A DNA stretch of 63,000 nucleotides, the filler included, from Collodictyon triciliatum (taxonomy: Eukaryota), in NCBI GenBank assembly GCA_043381765.1. It is 13 parts of 13 records of this genome, joined end to end, with 100 filler letters (N's around TTAATTAATTAA, not from the genome) between each part and the next. Parts side by side here need not be neighbours in the genome. Positions count along the whole stretch, not along the records: positions 51,123 to 55,844 come from JBHJMP010005824.1; 12 more parts are not named here. One strand, given 5' to 3'. Of the stretch, positions 19,657 to 60,546 are shown piece after piece. Each line of letters starts with the position of its first letter. Position 1 is the stretch's first letter. Below the pieces are notes generated by a model, which saw only the letters and a program-made list of their open reading frames with translations, had not been told where the DNA came from and did not search any database. A program made the translations under genes and the position numbers.

Positions 19657-19835
19657 ACATTAGCCAAGAAATTTTATATAAGTTATATTATGAGCTTAAA
19701 ATACAGAACTCTTAATTCTTTATCACTACAAAAAAAAATATTCATTGGTTTAAAGATTGGTTTTCGAAACAAGATCAAAAAATAAATTTTGAAGATGATT
19801 CAAATCGTTTAACGGGTTTAAATTTCAATTATATA

Positions 19836-22800
19836 TTGTCCTATACTCTACCACCAAAAGTTAGTCCTGAAGATTTAAGGAAGGCCGCTAAAGAATTTCA
19901 AGAGTTGTATTGGAATACTAGAAAAGAAAAAGAAACAACTTACTCAAAAGAAGAATTTATTAAATTAGAGAAATTATATGAAAAGGGCTTTGGTGAAAAA
20001 ATGCCAAAAGAAGTAGATACATTGGATGAATTATCAAAAGAACTATTAGAAGAACCATTTCTACTTCCGTATCACATTACTGACTCGGACCCGGAACCGG
20101 TATTTCAATCAAATCGTAAAACATACACTAAAGACGATCTGGAAACTATTGAGAAATTTATAGAAGTAAATAAAGAAGAAGAAAATAATCCAAACATGCC
20201 AAGTTGGAAATATATATTGGCCTTTAAAACAGACCCTCCAGTAGGTATGACTCCTGAACAAATGGAACAGGCTGTAGAAGATGAGGTGTATAAAGCTGAA
20301 GATCCAGATAGACGTAGAAAGTACAATCAAAAACAAGTTATTACTTTAGAAAAAATGATAGACGTCATATTAAAAGATAATCCTAATGATTCCAGTCTTC
20401 AATTGGCAGTGCTAAAATATGAAGTGGCATTTTCTATGAAACCTCCAGATGGCATGACTAAAACAGAAATGAATAATGATACAGAAGAAAGATGGCGACG
20501 AATCGAAGAAGAACGTAAGAAAGAAGCGGATGAAGAAGAAGATAAGGGACGATTGGATTCAAAAATAGATGAGCTAAATGCGTATTTTGCACAATTTGAC
20601 GATGTAATAGAAAGCCCCGAAGGAGAGAAAACATTGCAAAAAATGGCAGACGAGGTTAAACAAGAAATTGGAAATAAAAAAAGAGTATTTGACAATCGGA
20701 TACCTTCAGAAAAAAAATGCGCGTGGGCAGAGAGTAGCATCTAAAGTTTACACAGGTATGAATCTTTGCTTTAAAGAGTGGTATAAACACAGAGGGTTTA
20801 GTTATAAAGATGACGTTCCAAAAGATTTTGGTGACGAAAAGGAATTTGAGTTTATGGATTACATGGACAATGAATTTGACGAAGACGTGCGATTATATCT
20901 TTATAGCTTTGCTGCCAACGAAGAATTAGAATATACAGAAGAAGAAATTTTGGACTTGATATGGTGGAATATTGCGTATTATAGATTTATTGCTCTGCTT
21001 GAAAAAGAAGTACAAAACAAACAAGAGGCAGATGCACGTGCAAAAGGAGCTTTTGAAAGTAACGCCGCGCGAGAAAGACAATTAAAACAGATTGAAGAAG
21101 AAAAAGAAAAAAAAAGATAGCTAGCCCTTGAAAAAAAAAACGGGCTGAAGAGGAACTGGCTGAAAAGTTAAGAAAAGGACAAGAAGTGCAAAGACTTAAA
21201 CTTAATAAAGAAATTTTGCAGGAATATCACAGAAGATATTTACAAAATACGGACGAAACTATTGCCCAAGACCCACAGGGAGCAAGAAGAGTCAATGATG
21301 CATTGATTTCGTTTGCAACACCAGCAACAGTAATAAACGAGGAAGAACTATTTAAACAAATTGTAGATTCTCTCAGTCAGGGTGAGTTAATTGAATTTGG
21401 TAATAAATTGGCCACAGATCTACAAATATATGTCAGAGATTTTTTGACGCAAAACGCCCCTGAACAAACAAATGAAGGTGTTGTTAAATTTTATAACTCA
21501 TTGCCACCCGAGCTACAAGAATACATTAAACAGCTCAGAGATTTCAAATTAGAATGTGAAAAGGTAATGCAAACTAGAGCAGAGGTTGTTAAAACAACAG
21601 AATTAGCACTAATCCCAACCGCGGAACTAAATGAAGCTTATAAGGAATTGATAGACCGTGAAGAAAAAGATCTTGAAGCAATAATGAACGATTCACTTAA
21701 TGCCAAGTTAAACGAATTTGATGATATAAATTTTAGTAATTTACTTGCACGGTCAATTGTAAGCATGATACAAACAAGTGCGCAGTTATCTCGTGCGGCT
21801 TTATCACAGTCCATGCAGAATTTGTTTACTACTTTTGAGCGCTCACAATATTTTAATCAATCCAATTATGCCGCTAGGGCACAGAGAACATCTAGCATTA
21901 TATTTGGGCCTCAAGTCCTGGGAACGGCATCACCAAACACTACATTTAATCCTGACCAAACAACGATGAGTATGTTAGGCTCGATATTAACTCCTGCACA
22001 GTCTTTTCTAAATCAAAGCATACAACAGCTGGATCAATCAGGAACATTTACACAGGCACAGACCGCGTCTATGCTCAACGAATCTACTATAGAATTAAAT
22101 CCTGATGCATCAAATATGAGTGCAGGGTCATTTATGGCAAACACTCCTATAGCACAAAGCATTACAAACACGCCTACATATACTCAGCGTAGCGGATTTG
22201 GTACAAAGAGTACAACTGATTTTAAGAGCCCATTACCAGTTAGTAAAACTGCGAGAGAATTATTTGGTCCAGCACAAACACCAAACAGAACTAATGTTCC
22301 CGATACTAGCAAGAGTATCAGTATCACCAACATAACACAAAAATTAGCTGATATGAGCAATAGATTAAATCAAATAAAAGAACAAAATGAAACAAATAAA
22401 ATAGAAAATATTGAAACTCAAAAAATATCTGAAGATTTGAATCTAGATAAAGATTTAACACCTGCATCTCTAGAAAAACAAGCAGATGAATTAATTAAAA
22501 AATTAGCAGAACACGTAGAGCTTTTACAACAAAAACTAGATAATGCATATGAACAAATCGATACATTGGCTATTGCGATGAGTAATCAAAACGAATATAT
22601 ACAAGAACTTCAAGACACTGTTAATACTGCGTCTCAACTGGCAACTGGCTTGATGCAAGACAAAGAAATTTATCAAAATAAATTACAGGACTTGGGCGTG
22701 CAAATGGATAACGAACGTGCCCGCTTTGAGGAACAACGTGCAGCTCTCAACAAGATTATACCAGGCAACTATAGCGTCGGATTTGATACAACAAACATTT

Positions 22801-24459
22801 CAGTTGCACCTTCAGTAACAAAGACACCAAAAACACCAAAGATACAAGAAACAAAAGAAACTAAATCATAGTTCTAGTTTAAGCACAGCAGAGTTAGTAA
22901 ATTGAAGAGACAATTTAAAAAAAGTTCAGGATAGTTATAAGCAAAAGAGACAAGCACTAAATGCACAAATACAACTGAATAGAATTCGGGAATTAGAAAG
23001 TCAAGTACAAACTTTAATATTGTTACAGGAGGCACCCGACACTAAAGATGTCGAAATAGAAGATCTTAAAGAACAGATAAATAATTTAAATGCATTATTA
23101 AATCTTGAAAATCCTATTGTTATTGAACAAACTCAAACAATACAAGATTTACAGAATTTCATTGGAATATTACAAGCCCGAGGAAAAGAACTTGCTGATA
23201 CAGCTACTTTTTATTATAACGCTGCGTTTCCTGCAGTTCCCACAGATGAACCAGGGACACCAGTAGGAAGAGCTCCTCGCGAGGATACTCCCCAGAGTGC
23301 ACAACGACAAATTGCTGTAAGACAAGCCAGTCCAGGGGCCCCACCTAGTCCTTTTATGGTACCTGGCCCTTGGCAATTTGTTGATGATTTTCCAGCTCTA
23401 CCTCCGGCTGCACCTCAAAACCTGCAAGCAGACCCTAGAATACAGGTATTACCTACTAGCCTTCCTCGCCCCACTGCAGCTATGGTACTTGCTCAAAGTC
23501 CCGTTCAACCTCAACGTCAACAACAACCACTTGGTCTGCCACCTCTGCCACCTGTGTCTCCGGTTGTTCCTGGAAGATTGGCTGCAGCAAGAGCCATGGC
23601 TGGGGCTGTTTTTAATGTTGGCGCTGGCTTAGCCCAAGCTGCAGTTGGCGCTGGCGCTGGCATTTTCCAGGCGGCAGGTGATGCAGTACGAGGAAATATT
23701 TTCGGTGGTAATAATATGGCGGCAAACAGAAGAGTTTCAATGCAAGCAGCAACACCAAGTCCTATAATGGCAGCAGTACCATTATTTCCTCCCGGTAGGG
23801 GCGGCGGCGGTGGAGGCGGTGGCGGTGGAGGCGGTAGTCAACAGCCAATATTTAACCCAATGCGTCCTCAAGTATCGGACAGCCGTGAATACGGCAATCA
23901 ATCACGATTTGCTAGAAAAGTATCGAGGTATATCGAACAGGGTAATCCAGCAAGAGCTAATGATTATGGTATAGTAGATAAGCAAACTTTTGAAGCAGCC
24001 ATGAGAGAATTTAATATTGAATATGTCGATTTAACTCCTGACACTAGTGCGCTTATGGACATACTAGAATTATTTTTTGAAGGCAACATTCCAGGCCTAC
24101 AAAGCGCATTAAAAACATACCGTAAAGAAGGGTCATGGCCTCTCAAGTACAAGCCGAAATACGGAGACACGACTGACCAGAAACTGAGAAACGTCGCTTT
24201 TCTCCCCCAGCAAAACCTGGGCAGGGTCGTCAACTCTGACCTCGGTACCATCATTATTCCGGGCCAATCAAATTACAACATCCGACGAGAGGGGCTCAAT
24301 TACGTCGTCTACGGCGGGGGCCAGAAGCGCGCATTCGGCTCGGCCAGAGACGCCCAGTTCTTTGTCAGCTCCGGTGCATTTGGCCGCAAATCTTACGGGC
24401 CTGTCACAGAGCGTGTCTTTGGAACACCTATTAAGAATCTTTCACAGGCTATTTATTAA
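19836..24459 (+). pseudogene. Giant acidic/coiled-coil/Pro-Gly-rich protein gene (~1500 codons) split into four ORFs
   Basis: ORFs 19836-20744, 20668-21120, 21186-22871 and 23020-24459 are bridged by coding-like sequence (KR*LALEKK/RAEEELAEKLRKGQEVQ; KQKKLNHSSSLSTAELVN*RDNLKKVQDSY); shifts lie near A-rich runs; no introns. Confidence 0.65.
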
Positions 24460-24488
24460 ACAATTGTTATTATAATAAAAATTGTTTA
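24457..24488. terminator. 32-bp AT-rich palindrome between convergent stop codons; candidate bidirectional hairpin 3'-end signal
   Basis: TAAACAATT-G-TTATTATAATAA-A-AATTGTTTA is self-complementary except for one G/A mismatch. Confidence 0.7.
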
Positions 24489-24489
24489 C

Positions 24490-26574
24490 TTATGGCTTGG
24501 ACCAGCCTGTTACTACCCACTTATTTAATGTTTTATGACACATAATTGTCCAGCATGACCCAATTGGAATATTTTTAGATTCGCCAGCATTGAAAGCTGT
24601 TTGTGTGCCATCGGACCACAAATTTACACTATCTGAAGAAAATTCTACTTGAGCAAAAGCACTTGCGAACCCACCCTGGTCAAGGTGTATAATTTTAATA
24701 GTCCATCCATCTGGAATAGTAGCAGTATTTGCAGACGGAAGCAATAATTTTGCGGTTACATTGTGTTGAGTAGGACGACTAATAAAATATATCGGAGGAC
24801 TATTAGTACCGAGAGTTATAACTCCTGACGTGTTATGGGTATCAAACTCTTGGATTGGGCATCTCGCTAGTTCAAAATGTCTATCAAATAAGCATCTATC
24901 AGGTCTAAAAATTACATTCCGAAGCGAATTGACAACAATACTTACAAAAAATTCTCCGCTAGCTGTTCCGCCTCTGATGCAATTTGTACTCGAAACAACT
25001 GTACCAAACCTAACTTCATTTCCCGCAGGTAATTCTACACAACTCGGAGCAATGTATCCACTCACGGTTAGATTATTTGTGATTGATGCGCTACCCGAAG
25101 AACTGAACCCGGTAGCTGAAACTGTTTCTGGGAAACTTGCATTGCTTGCCATCCAATGTGAAGTAATGTACCAGACATTATCAATAAATTCACAGTGATG
25201 AGTTGCGTCTTTTGATACAGTGGTTGCCGTAGAATGATTAGTTACTAGGCCCCCTTGATAAATTCGTAAAGTAACACCCGCAATTGGCGTAAACTGAAGA
25301 ACAGCGCCTGATAAATTGCTATTCGGCACAATATCAAATGACATTCCATTTGTAAAGCCAGAGCTAAGAAATCTTAATACCACAGGTGTAAAACCCCCCA
25401 TATCAACTATAACATTGTTACTAAATGTTGCGCCCAGGTCGAAAGTTTGACTGTTGGCAGTTACAGTAATTACATTGGTTGGTTGAATGATCTGTTGAGA
25501 TATTGTTAAATTGCCGTTGACAGTCGCTGCTGTATTTGAAACAGATAATGTATTTACACCCTGTGCACGAAGAGAAACGACATTACTGTTACAAACAACT
25601 CTATTGTCTCCACTACTAGCAAAGCGATACCCCGCTGTGTCTCCATCCGGTGCTTGAAATCTGGCATTAGTTGTCACTGTTTGAAAGTGATCATTAAAAT
25701 TCACTCCTATTCGCATTCGTTCAGTTCCGTCTGTGCTAAAATTTATCACATTGTCACTTCCATAGATACCTGATTGCGGTACCGTCGAGTCACCAAATAA
25801 AAGAGCTGGAGCAGCTGCCGATCCTGCTGTGTTTAAATTTAATTGGCCTGAGATTGTAGGAGTCACCGCGTTGGAAACAACATATTGGCTATTTTGAACA
25901 CTGACTGTTCCAGCCTCTATAAACAATCTTTGTCTTGTCCCTGATTGATTACCAACATTAAATCGCATAGTCCTTACATTTGAACCATCTTCTCCTAAAA
26001 CTATATTGACATTATCAAACCCTCTCAACGTACCAGGATCGGTTGAGAAAGTCAAGGGAACCGATAAAGTGCTACCATTTTGATCCCACGTTTGTCTTGC
26101 AACATTTCCAGTAATAATACCCATTACATTGGTCGATGAAAGACCATAAAGGCCTGTATTGCTGGCACCAATTCTTATACCTGATGAACTCCCAGACCCT
26201 GTCCGAATAATATCGATGGATGGATTATCAGTAAATGAATATGTGCCTGCACCCGTTGAATTTAAAATTTGACCTGTAGCTGATGGAGTCGGTACCTGGT
26301 TCACTGTATCCCAAAAAACTGATGTGCCATTTGTTTCTAGAAATTTTCCAGCTTGCCCGGCTTGTGGAGGAAGCTCTCCTTCAATTCCGGTATACTGATA
26401 ACCAGTTGCTGCATCATTTACTTCCAAAAATTTATTTGCATCGGCTGCCGTTATCGTTGGCAAAACGAAACTTGACTGAGTTGTATCTGTGTATTCACCA
26501 TTTGTCCCGTCTGTCACAAAACTATAATCATAAGGGTATCTACTTGAATTTGATCCGATTTCGTATGAAGTCAT
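24490..26574 (-). CDS. Viral fibre/receptor-binding protein, 694 aa, intact
   Basis: G/S/T/N-rich beta composition; phage tail-fibre-type repeats LPPQAGQAGKFLETNGTSVFW and GSAAAPALLF..SGIY..INFSTDGTERMRI; two head-like modules ending NVWYIT and NKWVVTG. Confidence 0.75.
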   Translation of the reverse strand: MTSYEIGSNSSRYPYDYSFVTDGTNGEYTDTTQSSFVLPTITAADANKFLEVNDAATGYQYTGIEGELPPQAGQAGKFLETNGTSVFWDTVNQVPTPSATGQILNSTGAGTYSFTDNPSIDIIRTGSGSSSGIRIGASNTGLYGLSSTNVMGIITGNVARQTWDQNGSTLSVPLTFSTDPGTLRGFDNVNIVLGEDGSNVRTMRFNVGNQSGTRQRLFIEAGTVSVQNSQYVVSNAVTPTISGQLNLNTAGSAAAPALLFGDSTVPQSGIYGSDNVINFSTDGTERMRIGVNFNDHFQTVTTNARFQAPDGDTAGYRFASSGDNRVVCNSNVVSLRAQGVNTLSVSNTAATVNGNLTISQQIIQPTNVITVTANSQTFDLGATFSNNVIVDMGGFTPVVLRFLSSGFTNGMSFDIVPNSNLSGAVLQFTPIAGVTLRIYQGGLVTNHSTATTVSKDATHHCEFIDNVWYITSHWMASNASFPETVSATGFSSSGSASITNNLTVSGYIAPSCVELPAGNEVRFGTVVSSTNCIRGGTASGEFFVSIVVNSLRNVIFRPDRCLFDRHFELARCPIQEFDTHNTSGVITLGTNSPPIYFISRPTQHNVTAKLLLPSANTATIPDGWTIKIIHLDQGGFASAFAQVEFSSDSVNLWSDGTQTAFNAGESKNIPIGSCWTIMCHKTLNKWVVTGWSKP

Positions 26575-26590
26575 ATAAATACATACAAAA

Positions 26591-26936
26591 TTATTCTACG
26601 GGAACGAGCTTGAGCGTAATGTCAACACTTGCCGTCTGCGGGAAGTTAACTAGATTGTTGTACTGGTCAATAAAACTTATATTGAATCTTGTCGGCAAAA
26701 CCGAAAAGACAAGTTGTGTAAATTCTTCTTGGCTTTCTTCAATAAATGTATACTGGTATTTACTATTACTTAGATTCAATGGACACCGATAAGCAATATC
26801 AAAACGCTCAGGGATATCTGTGTTGAAATTCAGATTTGTAATTCCCTGGATAGTCATAAAAAAATAAGAGTACGGTTGTAAATTTCCAGGATTCGGCAGA
26901 TATTTTTTAGGAGTTGTTTGCAGAGGTAATTCAAAT
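26591..26936 (-). CDS. C-terminal part of a putative minor capsid (penton) protein, truncated by the contig end
   Basis: Frame is open to the contig edge: ..LQPYSYFFMTIQGI..DIAYRCPLN..RFNISFIDQYNNLVNFPQTASVDITLKLVPVE, resembling the I-x-I-x-x-x-D-x-x-G/N-x-x-x-D/N-F..TL end of PLV/Polinton pentons; 16 nt upstream of the fibre ATG. Confidence 0.55.
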
Positions 26937-27036: not shown

Positions 27037-30000
27037 CCCTCAGTCAACTTGGCGACAGGAATCGGCTCCAGTCCACTTTGCTTGGCAGACTTATGACAGA
27101 TACATTTATTAACCTTCCTCTCAATTCATTTTTTATGCAGAAAATAAACATATCCAAAAAAAATATTAAATGATGAATACCGTGCAAGATTCATGGGTAT
27201 GAATGGTCGATACAACCAGGGCAACATTAGCTGGCGTTTCTTTGGGCAACCAGGTCAGCAGATGCGGAGCTGGCGTTCCTTGCGACGGGTGGATTTGGTT
27301 GATGGCATCGATGAGGAAGACAAACTTCTCGTCCCTATAATACATAGTTTAATGTCAATTTTTTATTCGATTCTAGTATTTTAATTTCGATTTAAAAAAT
27401 AAATAATACATAAAAATTAAATTTTTACTTGTTTTTCTCCTGAATCATCTTCAGCAAGCCCTGGAGTCCCTCTTTTTCGTATTCTGGTGATAAAAAAAAA
27501 TAATAAATGCATGAAGAATTATACGATATTTGAATTAAAAAGATAAAAGTAAAATAAAATACAATACCAGCTTCTTCCTTCTTTTCCTCGACAAAGTTGG
27601 CAGAGTTTGCGACCAAAGTCCAAAAGCGAATCGAAACACTAAAATAAAAAAAATATTTTTAGAAAAACCAAAATAAAATGTCTGCAGCATATATTAAAAT
27701 TAGAAATAAAAAGAACGTACCTTTCCACGTAGTTGCTGAGATTGGTGCATCCGACAAAATGGAAAAAGACATGCAGCCCAGGATGCTTCAGCCCTTCGAA
27801 GTCTCTCGCTGTAGCAGCCATGAGTGACGACTTTCCAATCCCAGACTCGGCAGCAAGAACGATGATTTTGGATTTCTCGGTGTTCAGCTGATTCATGGCC
27901 TAATGAAAATAATTATTGATAAGAAAAGAATAGCAAAACATATTATTGTCATTTTTAATTAATTTATCTTTATCTTACTTGCTCCGTGATTGTCTTGAGA
28001 AGCTCCTTTCTTCCGCCAAACCCAGCCAGTCGATGCATCTTGAACTGGTGCTGCGCTTGGTCTTCAGGGTCTCTCACCTAGGATATAGTTATGTCAACAA
28101 AATGTAAATGAAATGAAATATATCTCACCAATCAATACTGATATACATTAAAAAAAATAAAATAAAAAATACAGTTTGCTTCCCAAAGTCACGCTCGATG
28201 GCGTAGGTGAGATGGTATGTCACAAAGTCCGAATACTCCTTCGCTCCCTTGTAGACAACATGCCCGAACTTGGCCTTGACTTTCCCTTTGAGCTCGTCCT
28301 GCCTCTTACGCTAAAAAAAACATTAAAAAAATATATGTCAAGAAATCAAATCATTAAATTAACGTAACATAATAAGATAAAAAAGAAAATTAAAGACTTT
28401 CTATCAATTTTTACCGCCTCTTCGTTTTCAGCTTGGAATAGCTTTCTTTCTTCCTCGCTCTTGGCATGTTCGACAGCATAGTGCTCATCGCGGAGGTAGA
28501 AGAAGGCGCGGCTGCATGCTGGTTTGTCAATCAGACAGGCATACTGAATCTGAACATGAATATATAATTTAGAGAATAATTTGTTAATTTTTCAATTATC
28601 ATTCATGAAAAGATAAAGAATAAAATATAGATATTCGCTTCACCTCGTATTCAGTCACACTCAGCCCAGGCATTCCGTCAATGAATGGGAAGCGGCTATT
28701 CGTTTCACTGCGCCATTCCACCCAGACGTCCTTCATGGTGGCATCAGGCTTGGTATTCAGCAGCTCCTCGAGGCGGGCTTGTTTATTCAGCTCCGTTTTG
28801 TTCTGGTCAGGAATCCAGCCGTAACGCGCACCGAGGGAACACACAAAGTATGGACACTTTCCGATAGAATCCAAGCAGCGAATCACAACCTTGAAAGTAA
28901 CAGGAGGAAATTGAAGCTCATTATTTTAGAAATTGCAGCATAATGAAAATTTTAAAAAATAACGAATTAATAATATTCTGATTACCCATCCCTCGCTACT
29001 GTCCACAGAAGTCAGTCCCCAGCGCAAATCGATAAAGACAAGGTCCACTCCCTTCGATTTCGCAAGTCTTTTCAACCTGACATTAAAAATTATATTGTAA
29101 GGAAAATAAAAACATCAAATTATCGTTCCTTATCATAAATTTATTATAAAAATATATTGAACTAACTCAGGGGCTCCATTCTTGAAAAACTCGTCTCTTT
29201 CTTTCTGCATGTCACGGAAGGTCGAGGAAAGAAAAACACGGATGACACGCTCGTCAAAGACGATGAGCGGCAATGGTGTTGGTGTCAGGTATCTTNNNNN
29301 NNNNNNNNNNNNNNNNNNNNNNNNNNNNNNNNNNNNNNNNNNNNNNNNNNNNNNNNNNNNNNNNNNNNNNNNNNNNNNNNNNNNNNNNNNNNNNNNNNNN
29401 NNNNNNNNNNNNNNNNNNNNNNNNNNNNNNNNNNNNNNNNNNNNNNNNNNNNNNNNNNNNNNNNNNNNNNNNNNNNNNNNNNNNNNNNNNNNNNNNNNNN
29501 NNNNNNNNNNNNNNNNNNNNNNNNNNNNNNNNNNNNNNNNNNNNNNNNNNNNNNNNNNNNNNNNNNNNNNNNNNNNNNNNNNNNNNNNNNNNNNNNNNNN
29601 NNNNNNNNNNNNNNNNNNNNNNNNNNNNNNNNNNNNNNNNNNNNNNNNNNNNNNNNNNNNNNNNNNNNNNNNNNNNNNNNNNNATTGGAAATTATATTTC
29701 GGCATGGTTCAAAAAATTAAAAAAAAAAACCTTAAATATGAAAGATTAAAAGGAGGTGTATTTTGTTACCCCAAGACTTCCCAAATGGCCAACACTTTGC
29801 CCAATAAGATACTGGAGCATTGCATTGAGCAAATCTGTAAGAATATTTATATGTCAGTTACCCATACAAAACAAATGGATGATATATGAAAAATTCCAAA
29901 ATCAGTTCCCATTAAAACAAATAAAGCAAACCAGCGTAATGGGCCTGAGAAGCAACAGCCTCATAACGCATATTCAATTTCAGAAACCAATCAACAATGA

Positions 30001-52893: not shown

Positions 52894-54833
52894 ATGAAGA
52901 AAAGAAAACGTCTTGGGTCTGAGAAACTAAAGTATGTAAAACCACCTTATCGAAATGTAAAAACAAATCTAAAGTCGATTGTAAATAATGCGGATGACTA
53001 TGGCAAAATCAACGATGCGGTTTTATTGTGTCATAATTTGGTTACCGAAACTTATCTGTTTGCAAGGTGGTACATATTGAAATCACAACTCCCAACAATC
53101 GATGAAATGTTTTTTTTATTTTATTTTTTGTACGCTTTAAAGACTGTCGGAATTGTTTCACAAGATAGACCCGCATTTTTAAAACAACCAGATATAAGTA
53201 AAGATATGACGACTTTTTATCTCCATGATTTTCGATTCCTTTTGTCCCGAAAAGAACGATTTCTGTTGGTTAGAGTGTCTCGTGTATCACCGTACCTGGC
53301 GAAGCAAATGTTAACAGCTTATCATAATAACATTAAGGAACATTTTGTAAAGAGGTTACTGCGCTTTATAAATCAAATAGTACCTAAATATGATATTATT
53401 ACGGAACCTATTAAAAAAAAAAGCCAGAGCTACGAAAGTTAAAAAAGCCATCTTCAAGAAACTCGAAATACTGGAACAATATAAAGGATGAGCTGCAATG
53501 CATTTGCATCATATCATTTCCAGCGATATTGTAAAAACTATCGAATATAACGTCAAAGTCAATCCAAATAAGTGCATACTATGTCTGATTTACATGAATC
53601 GCATTTTTGAGGACACCGGAACCAAACTGTTTCAACCAATCCCTACAAGAACTACCGATATACCATTTTATATTAATCTAGATATTGCATGTTTGATATA
53701 TATATTAGTATCAACTGGAAAAACACTATTAAAGTAGAATATGTCAGGATGCAAAGATACCCTGTGGGATGAGTTCTTTGAAATGAAGAAGAGAGTCTTT
53801 CATCAAAGAGACTACAATTTTAAATACATGATACAAACAGGCGGCTTGGCGGTGTCATTATTGTTTGAAAAGAAAGGTATTTCAAATTCAAAATCCAAAT
53901 ATAATACCCCCCAAGAATATGTTTACATAGATGAACTTTCCGAAGGGCAGTTATCTTTATTAGCAAAAAAAATTGTTGGAGCGGACGCAGGCAAGTTTGA
54001 TTTGGTTTACATGGTGGATGAGACAGGTAAGAAATTACGTTACACGGCACACCAAAGAAGACGTGATAGCAAATCTCTAAAAAATCACAAAATACTCTTG
54101 CGCGAGAAAAAAGAAAAGTACAATGCTCCAGGGATATGGATGGAAACAGATTTACAGAATGCTGTTTCTTTTGGCCTCAGGACTTTTGAAGAGAATCAAC
54201 AGTTTGAGACATCAAGATTATCTTTAATCGATTTAGAGACAGAATCGAGTAAACATAATTCATGCACGGTCGACTATGAAAAATAGAAAATATGTATCTA
54301 TGAAATCAAGTTACCAGATAGAATTATCCAGATTTTATGAATAAGTGACTTTTCGAAAGATGAGATGGAGAAAGTATGCTAATACGAAAAGAAGTGAACA
54401 ATTGGTCATGGACAGAATCGAAAAGGCATTTGGCATGGATGTTGTACTGCCGTATGGAGACTGTAGCAGAAAATCTCCAATGAAACATTTTATGACAATA
54501 ATCGGAAGAGGATTACGAAAAATACTATCCAAACGTTTTGAACCAGTTATTGCAGATGAATTTAGAACCTCCAAGATGTGCTACAACGCGAATAAGAACT
54601 GGAATATATGACACTGAAAGGAAATTCAAAAAAAAGTGTATAGATGTCACATATGTAAAGAATGCAATCGCTCAGAAAGCAACCAAAGTGTATTCTTGAC
54701 AATGGACTTTAACAGCGGTAAAAATATACTCAAGAAAGGTCTTTTAACCCTTCAAAAAATGCATACACCTTCCTCTAAAAAACAGGCTGTCGGGTCTTTC
54801 CTGGCAGCCTACACCACTACACAACCTTTGTGA
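52894..54833 (+). pseudogene. Fanzor1 (TnpB-related RNA-guided RuvC endonuclease), disrupted
   Basis: N-terminal VKTNLKSIV..YLFARWY..NNIKEHF; IQTGGLAVSLLF; RuvC-I IVGADAG (Asp codon 53984); FY..FRKMRW..Y; YGD..GRGLRK; RuvC-II DEFRTSKMC (Glu codon 54558); CxxC zinc-finger half CKEC; RuvC-III TMDFNSGKNI (Asp codon 54705); several in-frame stops and frameshifts. Confidence 0.9.
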
Positions 54834-54907
54834 AAAAAAGTGGTGAGACCTTGGATACTAGTGCACCAGATTTACCATTCGAAAGATTGGTATACTCCTT
54901 CTAGTAT
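54784..54907 (+). ncRNA. Candidate Fanzor omega-RNA scaffold
   Basis: Three consecutive hairpins overlapping and following the ORF end: AGGCTGTCGGG/CCTGGCAGCCT; CACCACT+CACAA/TTGTG+AGTGGTG; ATACTAG..TACCATTC-GAAA-GATTGGTA..CTAGTAT. Confidence 0.6.
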
Positions 54908-55369
54908 TTAAATAATGTTGTACTCAACTAAAAAAAAAGCATGATAAATCGGACGAACTCACGAAAGTGGAGATGCCATAAGACAACTCTGTGGCATCTT
55001 TTTTTCTTTTTTTTTTTAATAACAAAAGATACGATAACGAAAAGGGCAAATAAAATTATATAAAAAAGACAAGTACAACCAGAATATGGATTTATTGGTC
55101 GTTTAAGTTTGGGACTGAACAAAAAAATCTGCATGTTTCTCATTTATAATTATAATTTTGTATAATATATATGTATTTTGGAATCTTGGAATCTTAATAA
55201 TAAACATAACACCTAGGTTTTCTCGAGAAAAAAGCTTGCGATACAGCATGACAAATTGTCGAATAAAAATCAACGTCAAAGTGTAAAAACAAACACAAAA
55301 AAAACGTCAAAATATTAAAAAAAAAAAAAAAAAGTATAGAAATGTGTTACGGAGAATCAAAAATATAAA

Positions 55370-55844
55370 ATCAAGACGCTCTCTAAGCCGCCTACAGAGG
55401 GAGGACTGGGACTCATAACGCCTGGTATTGCATGGACATCGCTCACGATGAGATGGTGGGCAGATATGCTTACCCATCCGAAAGGATTCTGGCAGCGTGG
55501 AATGTGGCACCTCATCCATCGCATATGCCCGAACTTCAAGGCACAGCTCTGTGAGAGCAGAATCCCATCACCGCCACCTAACACTCCTGAACCGCTACTA
55601 GCGCGGTGGAAGGTTCTGTATGAAAACTGTGAAATGTGCGAGTCTACCCAACTACAAGCTGTTACGGGGCCAGCTTTGCTGGGATAGAGCAAAAGGCTTC
55701 TGTATCATCAAGTCGAGAGAAGGAAGCAGCTCCTTCATCCTGTAACAAGTCACATTCCAAAAGGATGGGAGCTTCGCACCGTCGAAAAATGCAACGATAT
55801 TTCACTCCTCGAATGCAACCCCAACCACAGCCGTCCTGAACAAC
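55370..55844 (+). mobile_element. L1/Tx1-like non-LTR retrotransposon ORF2 fragment (post-RT region), 5'-truncated
   Basis: IKTLSKPPTEGGLGLITP..LTMRWW, the PxxxGGLGL motif that follows RT in L1-clade ORF2; later in-frame stop. Confidence 0.65.
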
Positions 55845-55944: not shown

Positions 55945-56951
55945 TCACACTGATGATTTGCTTTGCCGCGGGCGCGCTTCTGGGCGATGCCTTCTTCCAT
56001 CTCATTCCCGAAACCTTCCACCTGATTGAAGAAGGCAGCCACGGGGACGAGCATCACGACGAACACGACGACCACAACGACACCATCGCAGACGCGGGTC
56101 CGGATGCCGGGGGCCGGCGGGTCTTTGGCGTGGGGCTGAGTGCCGTTGCGAATGCGGTGCGGGTGGCTGTGCGGGCGGGAGACGAGGACGCAGACCACGA
56201 TGACCACGGCCATGGAGAAGAAGAACAAGAGGAAGAAGAAGACGACCACGACCACGCCGCTTCCATTGTCCCGATGCTCTGTCTGATGTTCGGCTTCTTC
56301 ATCTTCTTCCTGCTCGAGACGTATCTGCATTCGCGCTGCCACGACCACGGCCTGGAAAACTCCCCAAACACAGCTCGTGTTGGGCACAGCGACGAGGCCG
56401 ATAATGCGTCGCATTCGCACTCCCACTCGCATCCCCATGCGAATCCCATTGCCCACTTGGAGGACGGAATCCATCCAAAGGTCGAGAACGTCCTCGAGGC
56501 GCCGCCTGTCGGGCTCATGATGATTCTCTCGGATGCGCTGCATAACTTTGTGGACGGCCTGGCCATCGGCTCGGCCTTCAGCTCCAGCTTCAACACGGGC
56601 ATTGCCACAAGTGTGGCCATCATAGCCCACGAGGTCCCCGCTGAGTTGGGCGAGATGGCTGTTCTCTTGTCGTCCGGATACTCGAAGCTCCAGGCTGTCT
56701 GTCTGAATCTGCTCAGTGGCTCGACTTCGCTTCTGGGTGCCGTTATTGGGGTGGTTGTTGGGGAAAACATCGACAATGCGGAGCAGTATATTCTGCCGAT
56801 AGTTGCGGGCGGGTTCATCTATATCTCGTGTGTCGACTTGCTCTCGGGGATTCTCAGCTCCCATGGAACGTCGCCCATACTCTTGCGGTGGAAGCTGCTT
56901 GCCATCTGGGTCGGCATTGCAATTATGATTGGTATCACTTATCTTGAATAA
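55945..56951 (+). CDS. ZIP (SLC39, LIV-1-like) metal transporter, N-terminal ~39 aa absent from contig start
   Basis: FAAGALLGDAFFHLIPE, His/Asp-rich loops, DALHNFVDGLAIG, HEVPAELGE, AGGFIYISCVDLL. Confidence 0.95.
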
Positions 56952-58060: not shown

Positions 58061-59209
58061 CTATTCGAGGTAGGATATACCAATCATGACACCTATGCCG
58101 ACCCAAATCGCCAGAAGCTTCCACTTTGTAGACACTGGGGAGGCCTCATGGGAGTTCAATATGCCGGACAACAGGTCGACACAGGATATGTAGATAAAGC
58201 CACCAGCTACAATAGGAAGGATGTAAAGCTCTGCATTCTCTATGTTGTCACCAATCACAATTCCAATAATCGTGCCAAGGATGGCAGTTGTGCCACTGAG
58301 CAGATTCAAGGTTACGGCCTGCATCTTGGAATAGCCAGAAGAGAGCAACACTGCCATCTCCCCGAGTTCGGCGGGAATCTCGTGTGCGACAATCGCAACA
58401 GTGGTTGCTATCCCAGTGTTGAAGCTTGAGCTGAAAGCCGAGCCGATGGCCAATCCATCCACAAAGTTGTGGAGTCCGTCGGACAGAATCATCATCAAGC
58501 CGATGGGCGGTGCCTTGAGGATGTCCTCGACTTGGCCTTTCTCATGGTCTCTCTCTGTGTATGGGTGGAAAGGTGGGTGGGCATGGGAAATCAAACCACC
58601 TGTGGCGTCGACTTTTTCGTCAGCCCTTAGTGGGCGCCGTTCAGCTTCCGGGCTCTCCATGCCGTGGTCATGGCACCGGGAATGGAGGTATGTCTCCAAG
58701 AGGAAGAACATAAAGAAACCAAACATCAAGCAGAGCATTGGGACAATGCTGTTTGAGTGGCTGTGCTCCTCTTCGTCATCCTCCTCCTCGTGGTCGTGGT
58801 CATGGTCATGGTCGTCTTCTGATTTAAACCCAGTTGTCCTCAAGACAGCGTGAGCAGCTGCACTTACTCCCAGAGCCAACTTGTGCTGACCTAAACCAGC
58901 AGCAGCCTGTGTGAGGCTTATGCCAGGACTGGGACTTGGGTCTGCGATGGTGTCGTTGTGGTCGTGGTCGTGGTCGTGGTCATGGTCGTGGTCATGGCTA
59001 TCTTCTTCAATCAAGTGGAAGGTCTCTGGAATGAGATGGAAGAACGTATCTCCAAGGAGCGCCCCAGCGGCGAAGCAAATCATCAAGGTAAAGACAGTCT
59101 TCTTGTATTCAGAGCCCAGAAGCGGAAGAAGGGCAAGTCCTACAAGAGAGAGGACGCTCACAATTACACTAGCGACGATTGCAGAGACCCATTCCTCTGT
59201 GTTGGCCAT
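58061..59209 (-). CDS. ZIP (SLC39, LIV-1-like) metal transporter, complete, intronless
   Basis: 382 aa; same motifs with (HD)n tracts; close paralogue of 55945-56951. Confidence 0.95.
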   Translation of the reverse strand: MANTEEWVSAIVASVIVSVLSLVGLALLPLLGSEYKKTVFTLMICFAAGALLGDTFFHLIPETFHLIEEDSHDHDHDHDHDHDHNDTIADPSPSPGISLTQAAAGLGQHKLALGVSAAAHAVLRTTGFKSEDDHDHDHDHEEEDDEEEHSHSNSIVPMLCLMFGFFMFFLLETYLHSRCHDHGMESPEAERRPLRADEKVDATGGLISHAHPPFHPYTERDHEKGQVEDILKAPPIGLMMILSDGLHNFVDGLAIGSAFSSSFNTGIATTVAIVAHEIPAELGEMAVLLSSGYSKMQAVTLNLLSGTTAILGTIIGIVIGDNIENAELYILPIVAGGFIYISCVDLLSGILNSHEASPVSTKWKLLAIWVGIGVMIGISYLE

Positions 59210-60546
59210 CTCTCTTGTGCTGTCTGGTGACTCTTTCCGTCCTTCCTGGAAGGGTGTTTACTGCGTAAGCGGAATTAAATGGATGAAGGTAAGGATTTGT
59301 TTGAACATTAGGATTCTTTGATACAAAGGTTGATGTGGAGACGTATACAGGTCATGTGTTTGATGCAACAATCGGTTGTAGATGTTTTGAGGGTTTTCCC
59401 ATCCTTTCCATCAGTGATGCATCAATTGATGTATGCGGTGCTAATTTGGCGATCGTTTGCTTCTTCTTCTCTTCCTTCCTCTTCACAACCTTCTGCCTGT
59501 GATTTGGCCCTTTGATTGTGTGATCTGGAGATGCCAATCACAACCCAACCATCAACAACACACACAACAAAGTGCAAAGAGGCTGTCGCACACCCTCTTC
59601 ATATACGGTCACGGCTATTTAAACTGGTGTGGTCTTTTTCTATAAAGCACGAGACAGTAATTTACATGTGCAAACAACAAAACATTAATTCCATCGTTCC
59701 TTTCCATGCAAGAGAATATTCCAACACAGGAGAGAAAAATAGGATTCCCCGGTGGCTCTCTCCCTTATTAAATCTCCGCTCACGGGCCTTTTTCTGCGCT
59801 ATGAAATACCATTTTTTATGTTCATGTAATTTATTTTTTAAAAAAAAAGTTCACATCTCCCGGCGGTATTGGCAGGTGCATTCATTTCAATATATCGAGA
59901 CACAAGATAGCACACAAGACCACTCTATCGCTCTATCCCAACAGGGCAAAGGGAGGGAAAGGAAAGGAAAGGAAAGGAAACTGAAATGATAAGAATAAAT
60001 AAGAAAAGAAAAGAAAAAGAGAAGAGGAACGCACCCGTTTAACAATCTCTTTGCCCTGCACCCATCCAACACCATCGGCCTCACTCCACCCTCGAAGCGC
60101 GCTTGTGTTCTTCTCCGAAGGCCAACCCAACGCCCACGAGGCCACATGAATCAGGAAATCGTTTGTTCTTTCCTTTCTGCCGGATGGAATTCGTGACTTC
60201 ATTTTCTGCACACAGACCAAAACCCAGCACGCGAAGCCTTTTCATGCGTGCAGCCCAAGCATACGAGCCCACAAAGGCCAGATATAATCCTCAACGCAAG
60301 CTTCTCACGCTTTCATTCACACAGCCATGAATCAACTGCTCATCGAATGACTGACTCGCAAGCAAGAAAACCCTCGACCAAAGATGAATCACAACAGCAG
60401 CAAAGAAGGAAGGAGAAGGCCAAGCACTTGAGAGCGACGACTAACTCATAGCTGCCCCTCCACCACGACCAGATAAAAGAAAGAGAAAGAGAAAAGAAAC
60501 CTCTTCACACCACCCGAAGCAGAGACAAAGAAGAAGAACCCTCCAA

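Follow-up and report, generated by a model that had tools for sequence, protein, structure and literature searches.

A probable relic of a Fanzor1-type RNA-guided nuclease gene in a repeated element of Collodictyon triciliatum

Fanzors are eukaryotic RNA-guided DNA nucleases, of interest as compact genome editors. According to the portions of the literature available to us, the presence of Fanzor1 in protists and giant viruses has already been published (PMC10432273, PMC10530073), as have Fanzor1 elements that occur in many copies, some of them partial, and carry a guide RNA at the 3′ end (PMC10432273, PMC10530073, 10.1101/2023.08.09.552727). In the same portions, the element of SpuFz1 (Spizellomyces punctatus) is described as compact (about 2.1 kb), with a single nuclease open reading frame (ORF), many copies, partial ones included, and a 3′ guide RNA (PMC10432273), and the Fanzor1 of the Spodoptera frugiperda ascovirus (SfAV) as bounded by terminal inverted repeats and equipped with a three-stem guide RNA (reRNA) of about 120 nucleotides (nt) plus a 20-nt guide (10.1101/2023.08.09.552727). 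Here we consider a stretch of 63,000 nt of the protist Collodictyon triciliatum (assembly GCA_043381765.1, 13 parts joined end to end), called the window from here on. We read its positions 52894-54833 (+ strand) as a decayed gene of a Fanzor1-type RNA-guided endonuclease lying in a compact mobile element, with a probability of roughly 0.88.

The gene starts with an ATG at 52894 and ends with a TGA at 54831-54833, both as placed by a preliminary description of this stretch, and it is occupied by five stop-to-stop frames that follow one another across three reading frames (pieces 1 to 5). As a reference for reading it we used P0001, an intact metagenome protein of 648 amino acids (aa). By tblastn, aa 1-175 of P0001 match frame +1 at 52894-53421 (60% identity), aa 168-462 match frame +2 at 53405-54283 (53%) and aa 465-642 match frame +3 at 54288-54821 (59%), so that the match is colinear, in three segments, over the whole length. 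When the frames are stitched with an X at each break, the read-through has 647 residues and aligns to P0001 in 651 columns with an identity of 56.8%, which excludes chance. The earlier proposal that the five ORFs stitch into one Fanzor1-like protein is thereby borne out. A second Fanzor copy was not found within the window, where only low-complexity matches of at most 51 nt appeared. To follow other copies, contigs of four public runs were compared with the region 52300-55300 at a likeness of at least 85%; one of these runs, X1, holds 43 million letters from one organism. The parts of the locus are the following.

52300..52893 (+): upstream portion of the repeated element, covered by contigs of runs X1, X2, X3 and X5.
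52894..53421 (+): segment 1, read-through aa 1-176, with N-terminal REC-like helices and a basic MKKRKR start (tblastn; matches to GtFz1 and PpFz1).
53413..53422 (+): A10 homopolymer with frameshift 1, +1 to +2 (sequence, tblastn, three-frame translation).
53423..54283 (+): segment 2, with RuvC-I GADAG (its D at about 53984-53986) and the stops TGA 53489-53491 and TAG 53735-53737.
54284..54287 (+): frameshift 2, a loss of 2 nt, +2 to +3 (tblastn, three-frame translation, X1 contigs).
54288..54587 (+): segment 3, with FRKMRW, RuvC-II DEFRTSK and the first zinc-finger Cys; TAA 54342-54344 lies inside.
54590..54634 (+): segment 4, a shifted-frame detour between frameshifts 3 and 4, holding TAA 54593-54595.
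54636..54833 (+): segment 5, with the second zinc-finger pair CHICKEC, RuvC-III MDFNSGKNI, the C-terminus and the TGA stop.
54786..54930 (+): three-hairpin 3′ region overlapping the ORF end; candidate omega/reRNA scaffold relic and right end of the element.

The identity of the gene was assessed at three levels. At the first, single pieces were compared with the sequences of solved structures: piece 1 matched the Fanzor1 of Guillardia theta (GtFz1, E 1.2e-4) and that of Parasitella parasitica (PpFz1, E 6.5e-4), piece 3 matched SpuFz1 (E 0.015) and PpFz1 (E 0.026), and piece 4 matched PpFz1 (E 7.7e-6) and SpuFz1 (E 0.031). For each of the three the top match was a Fanzor1 chain, and the matched chain positions rise in order. 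At the second level, a family profile was derived from an alignment of 22 intact relatives (A1); against the Protein Data Bank (PDB) at E≤0.01 it matched three distinct sequences, all of them Fanzor1 (PpFz1 3e-65, SpuFz1 3e-62 over nearly its full length, GtFz1 8e-46), and no structure of TnpB, Fanzor2 or Cas12. At the third, an AlphaFold2 model built with A1 (predicted local distance difference test, pLDDT, 74.6; predicted template modelling score, pTM, 0.65) was compared with the PDB by Foldseek, the fold comparison being made on the intact relative P0001 and not on the window sequence. The seven top matches of this model were all Fanzor1 (E 9e-24 to 1.5e-20; template modelling score for the query, TMq, 0.53-0.65), followed by Cas12X (1.4e-5) and Cas12f (about 1e-5). 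As checks, the preliminary description had named a profile search and a comparison of a predicted structure with the solved Fanzor1 structures: the first returned Fanzor1 only (3e-65 to 8e-46), and the second gave a Fanzor1 fold for the P0001 model (E about 1e-23).

The motifs recognised in the window are GADAG, DEFRTSK, MDFNSGKNI and FRKMRW. Residues were mapped to SpuFz1 through the alignments of the window pieces, with the numbering of PMC10432273 in its available portion, where D383 and E541 are given as metal-binding residues. The D of GADAG (D364, invariant in the 22 relatives) aligns to D383 in RuvC-I, and the E of DEFRTSKMC aligns to E541 and to the DEFRTS motif of PpFz1 in RuvC-II. 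A DPG signature is described for the RuvC-I of Fanzor1 (10.1101/2023.08.09.552727, in the part available to us); in the window the motif reads DAG, its P being lost. For RuvC-III (RDxxxxxN), MDFNSGKN keeps the D and the N and has M in place of the invariant R603; in the profile, the RD motif of the family aligns to that of PpFz1. The three catalytic acids (D, E, D) are thus all retained, as had been claimed. The motif list of the preliminary description stands for GADAG, DEFRTSK, DFNSGKNI and FRKxRW and not for the TDG motif, which is TGG in the window and has lost its D. What had been called a partial zinc finger has all four Cys codons recognisable in the DNA (C-Y-N-[C] and CHICKEC), with the frame broken between them: the loss of 1 nt after 54587 cuts through the second Cys codon.

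Eight lesions were counted in the gene, four frameshifts and four in-frame stops. From 5′ to 3′ they are a 1-nt shift within the A10 run 53413-53422, a TGA (53489-53491) opposite a W of P0001, a TAG (53735-53737) opposite an R of P0001, a loss of 2 nt near 54285 (three X1 contigs have an extra TC behind 54285), a TAA (54342-54344), a loss of 1 nt after 54587 (nine X1 contigs, one X2 contig and two X3 contigs have an extra T there), a TAA (54593-54595) within the shifted stretch 54590-54634, and a 1-nt shift back within the A8 run 54628-54635. Read by three-frame translation in the shifted frame, 54590-54634 agrees with P0001 ('QNQLEYYKVKGSNKK') at 9 of 15 positions, above the nominal frame, and the CxxC pair is restored. 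Since the shifted frame fits P0001, the stretch 54585-54630, which had been described as scrambled, is rather a pair of compensating frameshifts, and the TGAs at 54609 and 54615 are out-of-frame readings only.

The lesions bear on whether the gene could still be functional, with its interruptions explained as introns, a variant genetic code, programmed frameshifts or assembly errors. Two of the frameshifts do lie in homopolymers (A10 and A8), the TGA at 53489 occupies a W position of the relatives, and many eukaryotic Fanzors have introns (PMC10530073, in its available portion). However, the P0001 alignment is gapless and without insert at each stop, and no insert of intron size is seen at any of them, so that the interruptions are not introns. 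Moreover, TGA, TAG and TAA all occur among the stops, and the four (TGA, TAG, TAA, TAA) sit at differing P0001 residues; a variant code would therefore not restore an open frame. Neither the frameshift at 54285 nor that at 54587 lies in a homopolymer, and the bases missing there are present in other copies. Among 75 columns invariant in the 22 intact relatives, 61 are kept in the window and 14 are lost; W523 is one of the residues gone, as are the DPG proline, the TDG aspartate and the arginine of the RD motif. Finally, the branch of the window copy in the tree described below is twice as long as that of P0001. On this evidence we consider a functional gene very improbable. The window copy is unable to make the protein, and is a Fanzor1 member by descent and not a working one. 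The claim of a dead Fanzor1 copy accordingly holds, given the four frameshifts, the four stops and the agreement of top matches, profile and fold.

A protein search was made with the middle part of the gene (53492-54286, the TAG as X). Of 1900 candidates, 31 proteins passed E≤0.01; they are 470-652 aa long, P0001 being the best of them. All 31 carry the precomputed label PF26935, and seven also PF07282; one relative is named 'Transposase, viral metagenome'. PF26935 is absent from our local Pfam copy, and a full-text search found no paper on it. When IMG/VR was scanned with A1, 528 stretches matched, of which 440 encode a relative. We kept 80 loci (L001-L080), many on contigs of giant-virus metagenome-assembled genomes (MAGs). 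All 80 have 575-637 stop-free codons (at least two of them run into the end of the locus), and their proteins are 38-47% identical to P0001. The Fanzor1 family itself is therefore not new: it is large, Pfam-labelled and abundant in giant-virus genomes.

Closer relatives were looked for in several ways. A scan of Joint Genome Institute (JGI) metagenomes with piece 3 gave 18 loci, all at 42-49% identity, and an exhaustive HMMER search with the same piece gave 448 clusters at E≤1e-3 (88 at E≤1e-10), in which the closest matches are fragments of 50-84 aa with 70-83% identity and the best long match has 45%. In the protein search for closer relatives the best hits were partial proteins at 55-56% identity. 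No close intact copy was found in the protein searches, where no long protein exceeds about 56-62% identity, and a cluster look-up of P0001 added nothing.

The relationships were examined with FastTree on 105 distinct of 112 sequences (625 columns, midpoint root, no characterised outgroup). The window copy and P0001 are joined with support 1.0 on a long stem, and the pair is sister (support 0.90) to a clade of 11 members, viral-contig sequences among them. The branch of the window copy measures 0.54 and that of P0001 0.24, as expected for a copy decaying without selection. In the sequence data the two form a distinct sublineage without a characterised member. The suggestion of an uncharacterised family with intact copies elsewhere thus survives in part: the copies are many and the sublineage is uncharacterised, whereas the family already has a Pfam label and no close intact copy turned up.

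The gene lies within a repeated element. In X1, 420 contig pieces fall on 52300-54925, of which 32 are at 99% likeness or more, 103 at 95-99%, 161 at 90-95% and 124 below 90%; their coverage spans 52300 to about 54925, with nothing past 54926. Further copies, mostly 85-95% alike, occur in two freshwater runs and in one run of a subsurface metagenome, and in the X2 copies the likeness also stops near 54925. Because the shared sequence ends sharply at this point across copies, we considered it the right end of a repeated unit, which extends from 52300 or earlier to about 54925 and measures roughly 2.6 kb at least. About 95-135 nt around 52405-52500 are absent from several X1 contigs, with joints from 52368..52415 to 52498..52540. 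The contigs of P0001 and of its twin are 2610 and 2597 nt long, equal to the unit of about 2.6 kb if the left end is near 52300; we treat this equality as a coincidence and not as a result.

Some further observations were made at and around the ends of the element. One freshwater X3 contig (depth 21.9) joins 52462 to 55142 through 17 other letters and lacks the whole Fanzor region; this joint may mark, in a related genome, a site that is empty or a derivative that arose by deletion. Just past the right end, at 54960-55020, there is a hairpin (arms of about 8 nt, judged by eye) followed by a long T-rich run, and 54993-55029 was skipped as a repeat in the contig comparison. Just upstream of the element, 51790-52170 is made of microsatellite or low-complexity arrays, with units of 6 nt and 12 nt and a CTT-rich stretch.

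The elements of the family in giant viruses were analysed in the same respects. At the viral loci sequence conservation begins about 55 nt ahead of the stop codon and extends about 85-115 nt beyond it. The motif that closes this 3′ region is the left end in reverse complement, which means that the viral elements carry inverted repeats. These repeats are about 28 nt long (TTTACACCTTT...CATTTAAAACGCC and complement), are seen at loci L010-L080 and were present, as judged by eye, in all 25 aligned viral left ends. The right repeat is the last part of the conserved 3′ RNA, and the viral unit measures about 2.4 kb. RNAalifold, applied to 43 of 66 distinct viral 3′ regions, gave a hairpin of 10 pairs with compensatory changes in nine of them, and from this alignment the covariance model R1 was built.

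The viral loci also have a conserved ORF of about 60-115 aa, located 50-100 nt upstream of Fanzor1 on the same strand and within the inverted repeats (e.g. L012:5362-5634, L016:5598-5888, L001:5740-5946). Of 51 loci with an upstream ORF of at least 55 aa, 46 have it, and its product is basic and coiled-coil-like, with the motif ...YTAP..YYE.HK...KKKEYAR.AYL.KKEK... and no significant family in Pfam. An accessory role in these elements is possible. A relic of this ORF was looked for in the window and not found.

At the 3′ end of the window copy, 54786-54930 (+) is predicted to fold into three hairpins, with a minimum free energy of -45.9 kcal/mol against -28.8 ± 3.5 for shuffled sequences (z -4.9; none of 200 shuffles folds as well). 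Among 142 windows on both strands of 52000-55400 this region has the lowest z (-4.77, the median being 0.02), and the strong 3′ fold is on the sense strand only. Rfam gave no RNA family over 51500-55800 and ARAGORN gave no tRNA. Since its position, strand and three-stem shape fit the descriptions of Fanzor1 reRNAs (10.1101/2023.08.09.552727, in the part available to us), the region is probably, by analogy, a relic of a guide RNA.

Several results weigh against reading the locus as a decayed Fanzor1 gene in a compact mobile element, or against parts of this reading. Piece 5 alone matched only zinc-finger proteins among the PDB sequences and no Fanzor, and the local Pfam search on the five pieces and the read-through segments gave no significant family. 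The frameshifts in the A10 (53413-53422) and A8 (54628-54635) runs could be sequencing errors. Concerning the element, the copies place the left end only at or before 52300. No convincing terminal inverted repeats were found in the window, in contrast to the repeats of about 28 nt in the viral relatives: when the right end was reverse-complemented and aligned locally to 51900-52900, the best score was 26 (shuffles 27.1 ± 3.8), and a 20-mer search matched only itself. Lastly, R1 had no significant match at the expected place, its 14 matches to the window at E≤10 being led by one of E 1.9 on the minus strand (54888-54970).

An alternative origin, given the distribution of the family, is an endogenous viral element: the gene would then be what remains of a giant-virus genome after integration, and not a host-resident transposon copy. 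Most finds of the family are on giant-virus MAG and IMG/VR contigs, the relative annotated as a viral-metagenome transposase belongs to it, and the tree places viral-contig sequences in the sister clade. The flanking genes, however, are of ordinary cellular kinds, with an NHL-repeat protein encoded at 49165-50295 and two ZIP transporters (55947-56951 and 58061-59257), and the GC content (guanine plus cytosine) is the same as in the neighbouring DNA; cellular neighbours and matching GC make a relic of a large viral insertion unlikely. In addition, only about 2.6 kb, with the sharp end near 54925, is common to other copies, which fits a small repeated unit, and the two large orphan ORFs elsewhere in the window (21132-22871 and 24490-26595) have no close relative in IMG/VR. 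We consider this origin improbable and prefer the decayed copy of a compact mobile element.

As for the surroundings, the ZIP genes (the first on +, the second on -) are convergent and about 1.1 kb apart. The best database relative of the second ZIP protein is only 39% identical, which suggests that the host lineage is poorly sampled. The orphan ORFs belong to a group of four long open frames lying close together in 19716-26595 (342, 579 and 517 aa on +, 701 aa on -), none with a Pfam family. Paired runs of 44 N recur every ~4820 nt in the window, and one run of 388 N is at 29296-29683; they look like masking and not like assembly gaps.

The intact relatives are proteins of about 620-650 aa with the components of the Fanzor1 fold, namely REC, WED, a split RuvC (D-E-D triad) and a CxxC...CxxC zinc finger. 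By analogy with the characterised Fanzor1s, such a protein would take up a guide RNA produced from the 3′ end of the element that encodes it and cut DNA matching about 20 nt of the flanking sequence, and this cutting would help the element to persist (mechanism as drawn from the available portions of PMC10432273 and 10.1101/2023.08.09.552727). The element belongs to the sublineage of the window copy and P0001 within the family abundant in giant-virus genomes, and it is present as many diverged copies in the organism of run X1. More tentatively, the window copy and P0001 might belong to a host-resident, recently active Fanzor1 lineage of a poorly sampled protist that exchanged genes with giant viruses, in which case intact copies, surviving among the 85-100%-alike copies of X1, would have a working nuclease with a guide RNA and ends of their own. 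The guide RNA and ends are supposed to differ from the viral ones because neither the RNA model nor the inverted repeats of the viral relatives match here; on the whole we find this scenario possible and rather doubtful.

With this locus, a Fanzor1 family otherwise found mostly in giant-virus genomes gains a dead copy from a eukaryote not sampled before, and the locus would be a further sign of genome traffic between giant viruses and protists. Being a broken gene of a catalogued family, it opens no new question by itself and is a fairly ordinary genomic fossil. Its practical value is that of a pointer, both to a source organism that probably has many copies and to the P0001 sublineage, from which no member has been characterised. 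The preliminary description was right in its observation and in its core interpretation, and overrated the importance of the locus.

We finally compare the locus with the known systems. TnpB, Fanzor2 and Cas12 have the RuvC and zinc-finger core in common with the family of the window gene (Foldseek E 1e-5 to 1e-3), but with TMq values of 0.14-0.30 they are far weaker matches than Fanzor1; membership in Fanzor2 or TnpB was tried and rejected, the Foldseek E values being 1.4e-3 for ApmFz2 and 1.9e-3 to 3.9e-3 for TnpB, against about 1e-23 for Fanzor1. PpFz1 (PDB 9CF0) and GtFz1 (PDB 9CER) are the best direct matches of the window pieces. They are larger, with extra insertions, so the profile matches each in two stretches, and they come from a fungus and a cryptophyte, outside the giant-virus-associated family.

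SpuFz1 (Spu-1, PDB 8GKH) is alike in size (about 640 aa) and in fold (TM 0.64-0.69), whereas its identity to the P0001 model in the structural alignment is only about 19-20%. Its element resembles that of the window in compactness, in the single nuclease ORF, and in the many copies, partial ones included, and its guide RNA lies at the 3′ end, where the window copy has the candidate relic; its copies, however, are intact and have inverted repeats of 30 nt, while the window copy is broken and has no detected inverted repeats. The viral copies (L001-L080) differ in that they are intact, with inverted repeats of about 28 nt and a small upstream ORF, none of the three being detectable in the window, and the model of their 3′ RNA has no significant match there. 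They nevertheless belong to the same protein family as the window gene, with the same ORF length and a structured RNA overlapping the ORF end, and the three-stem reRNA of SfAV resembles the three hairpins predicted at 54786-54930 of the window.

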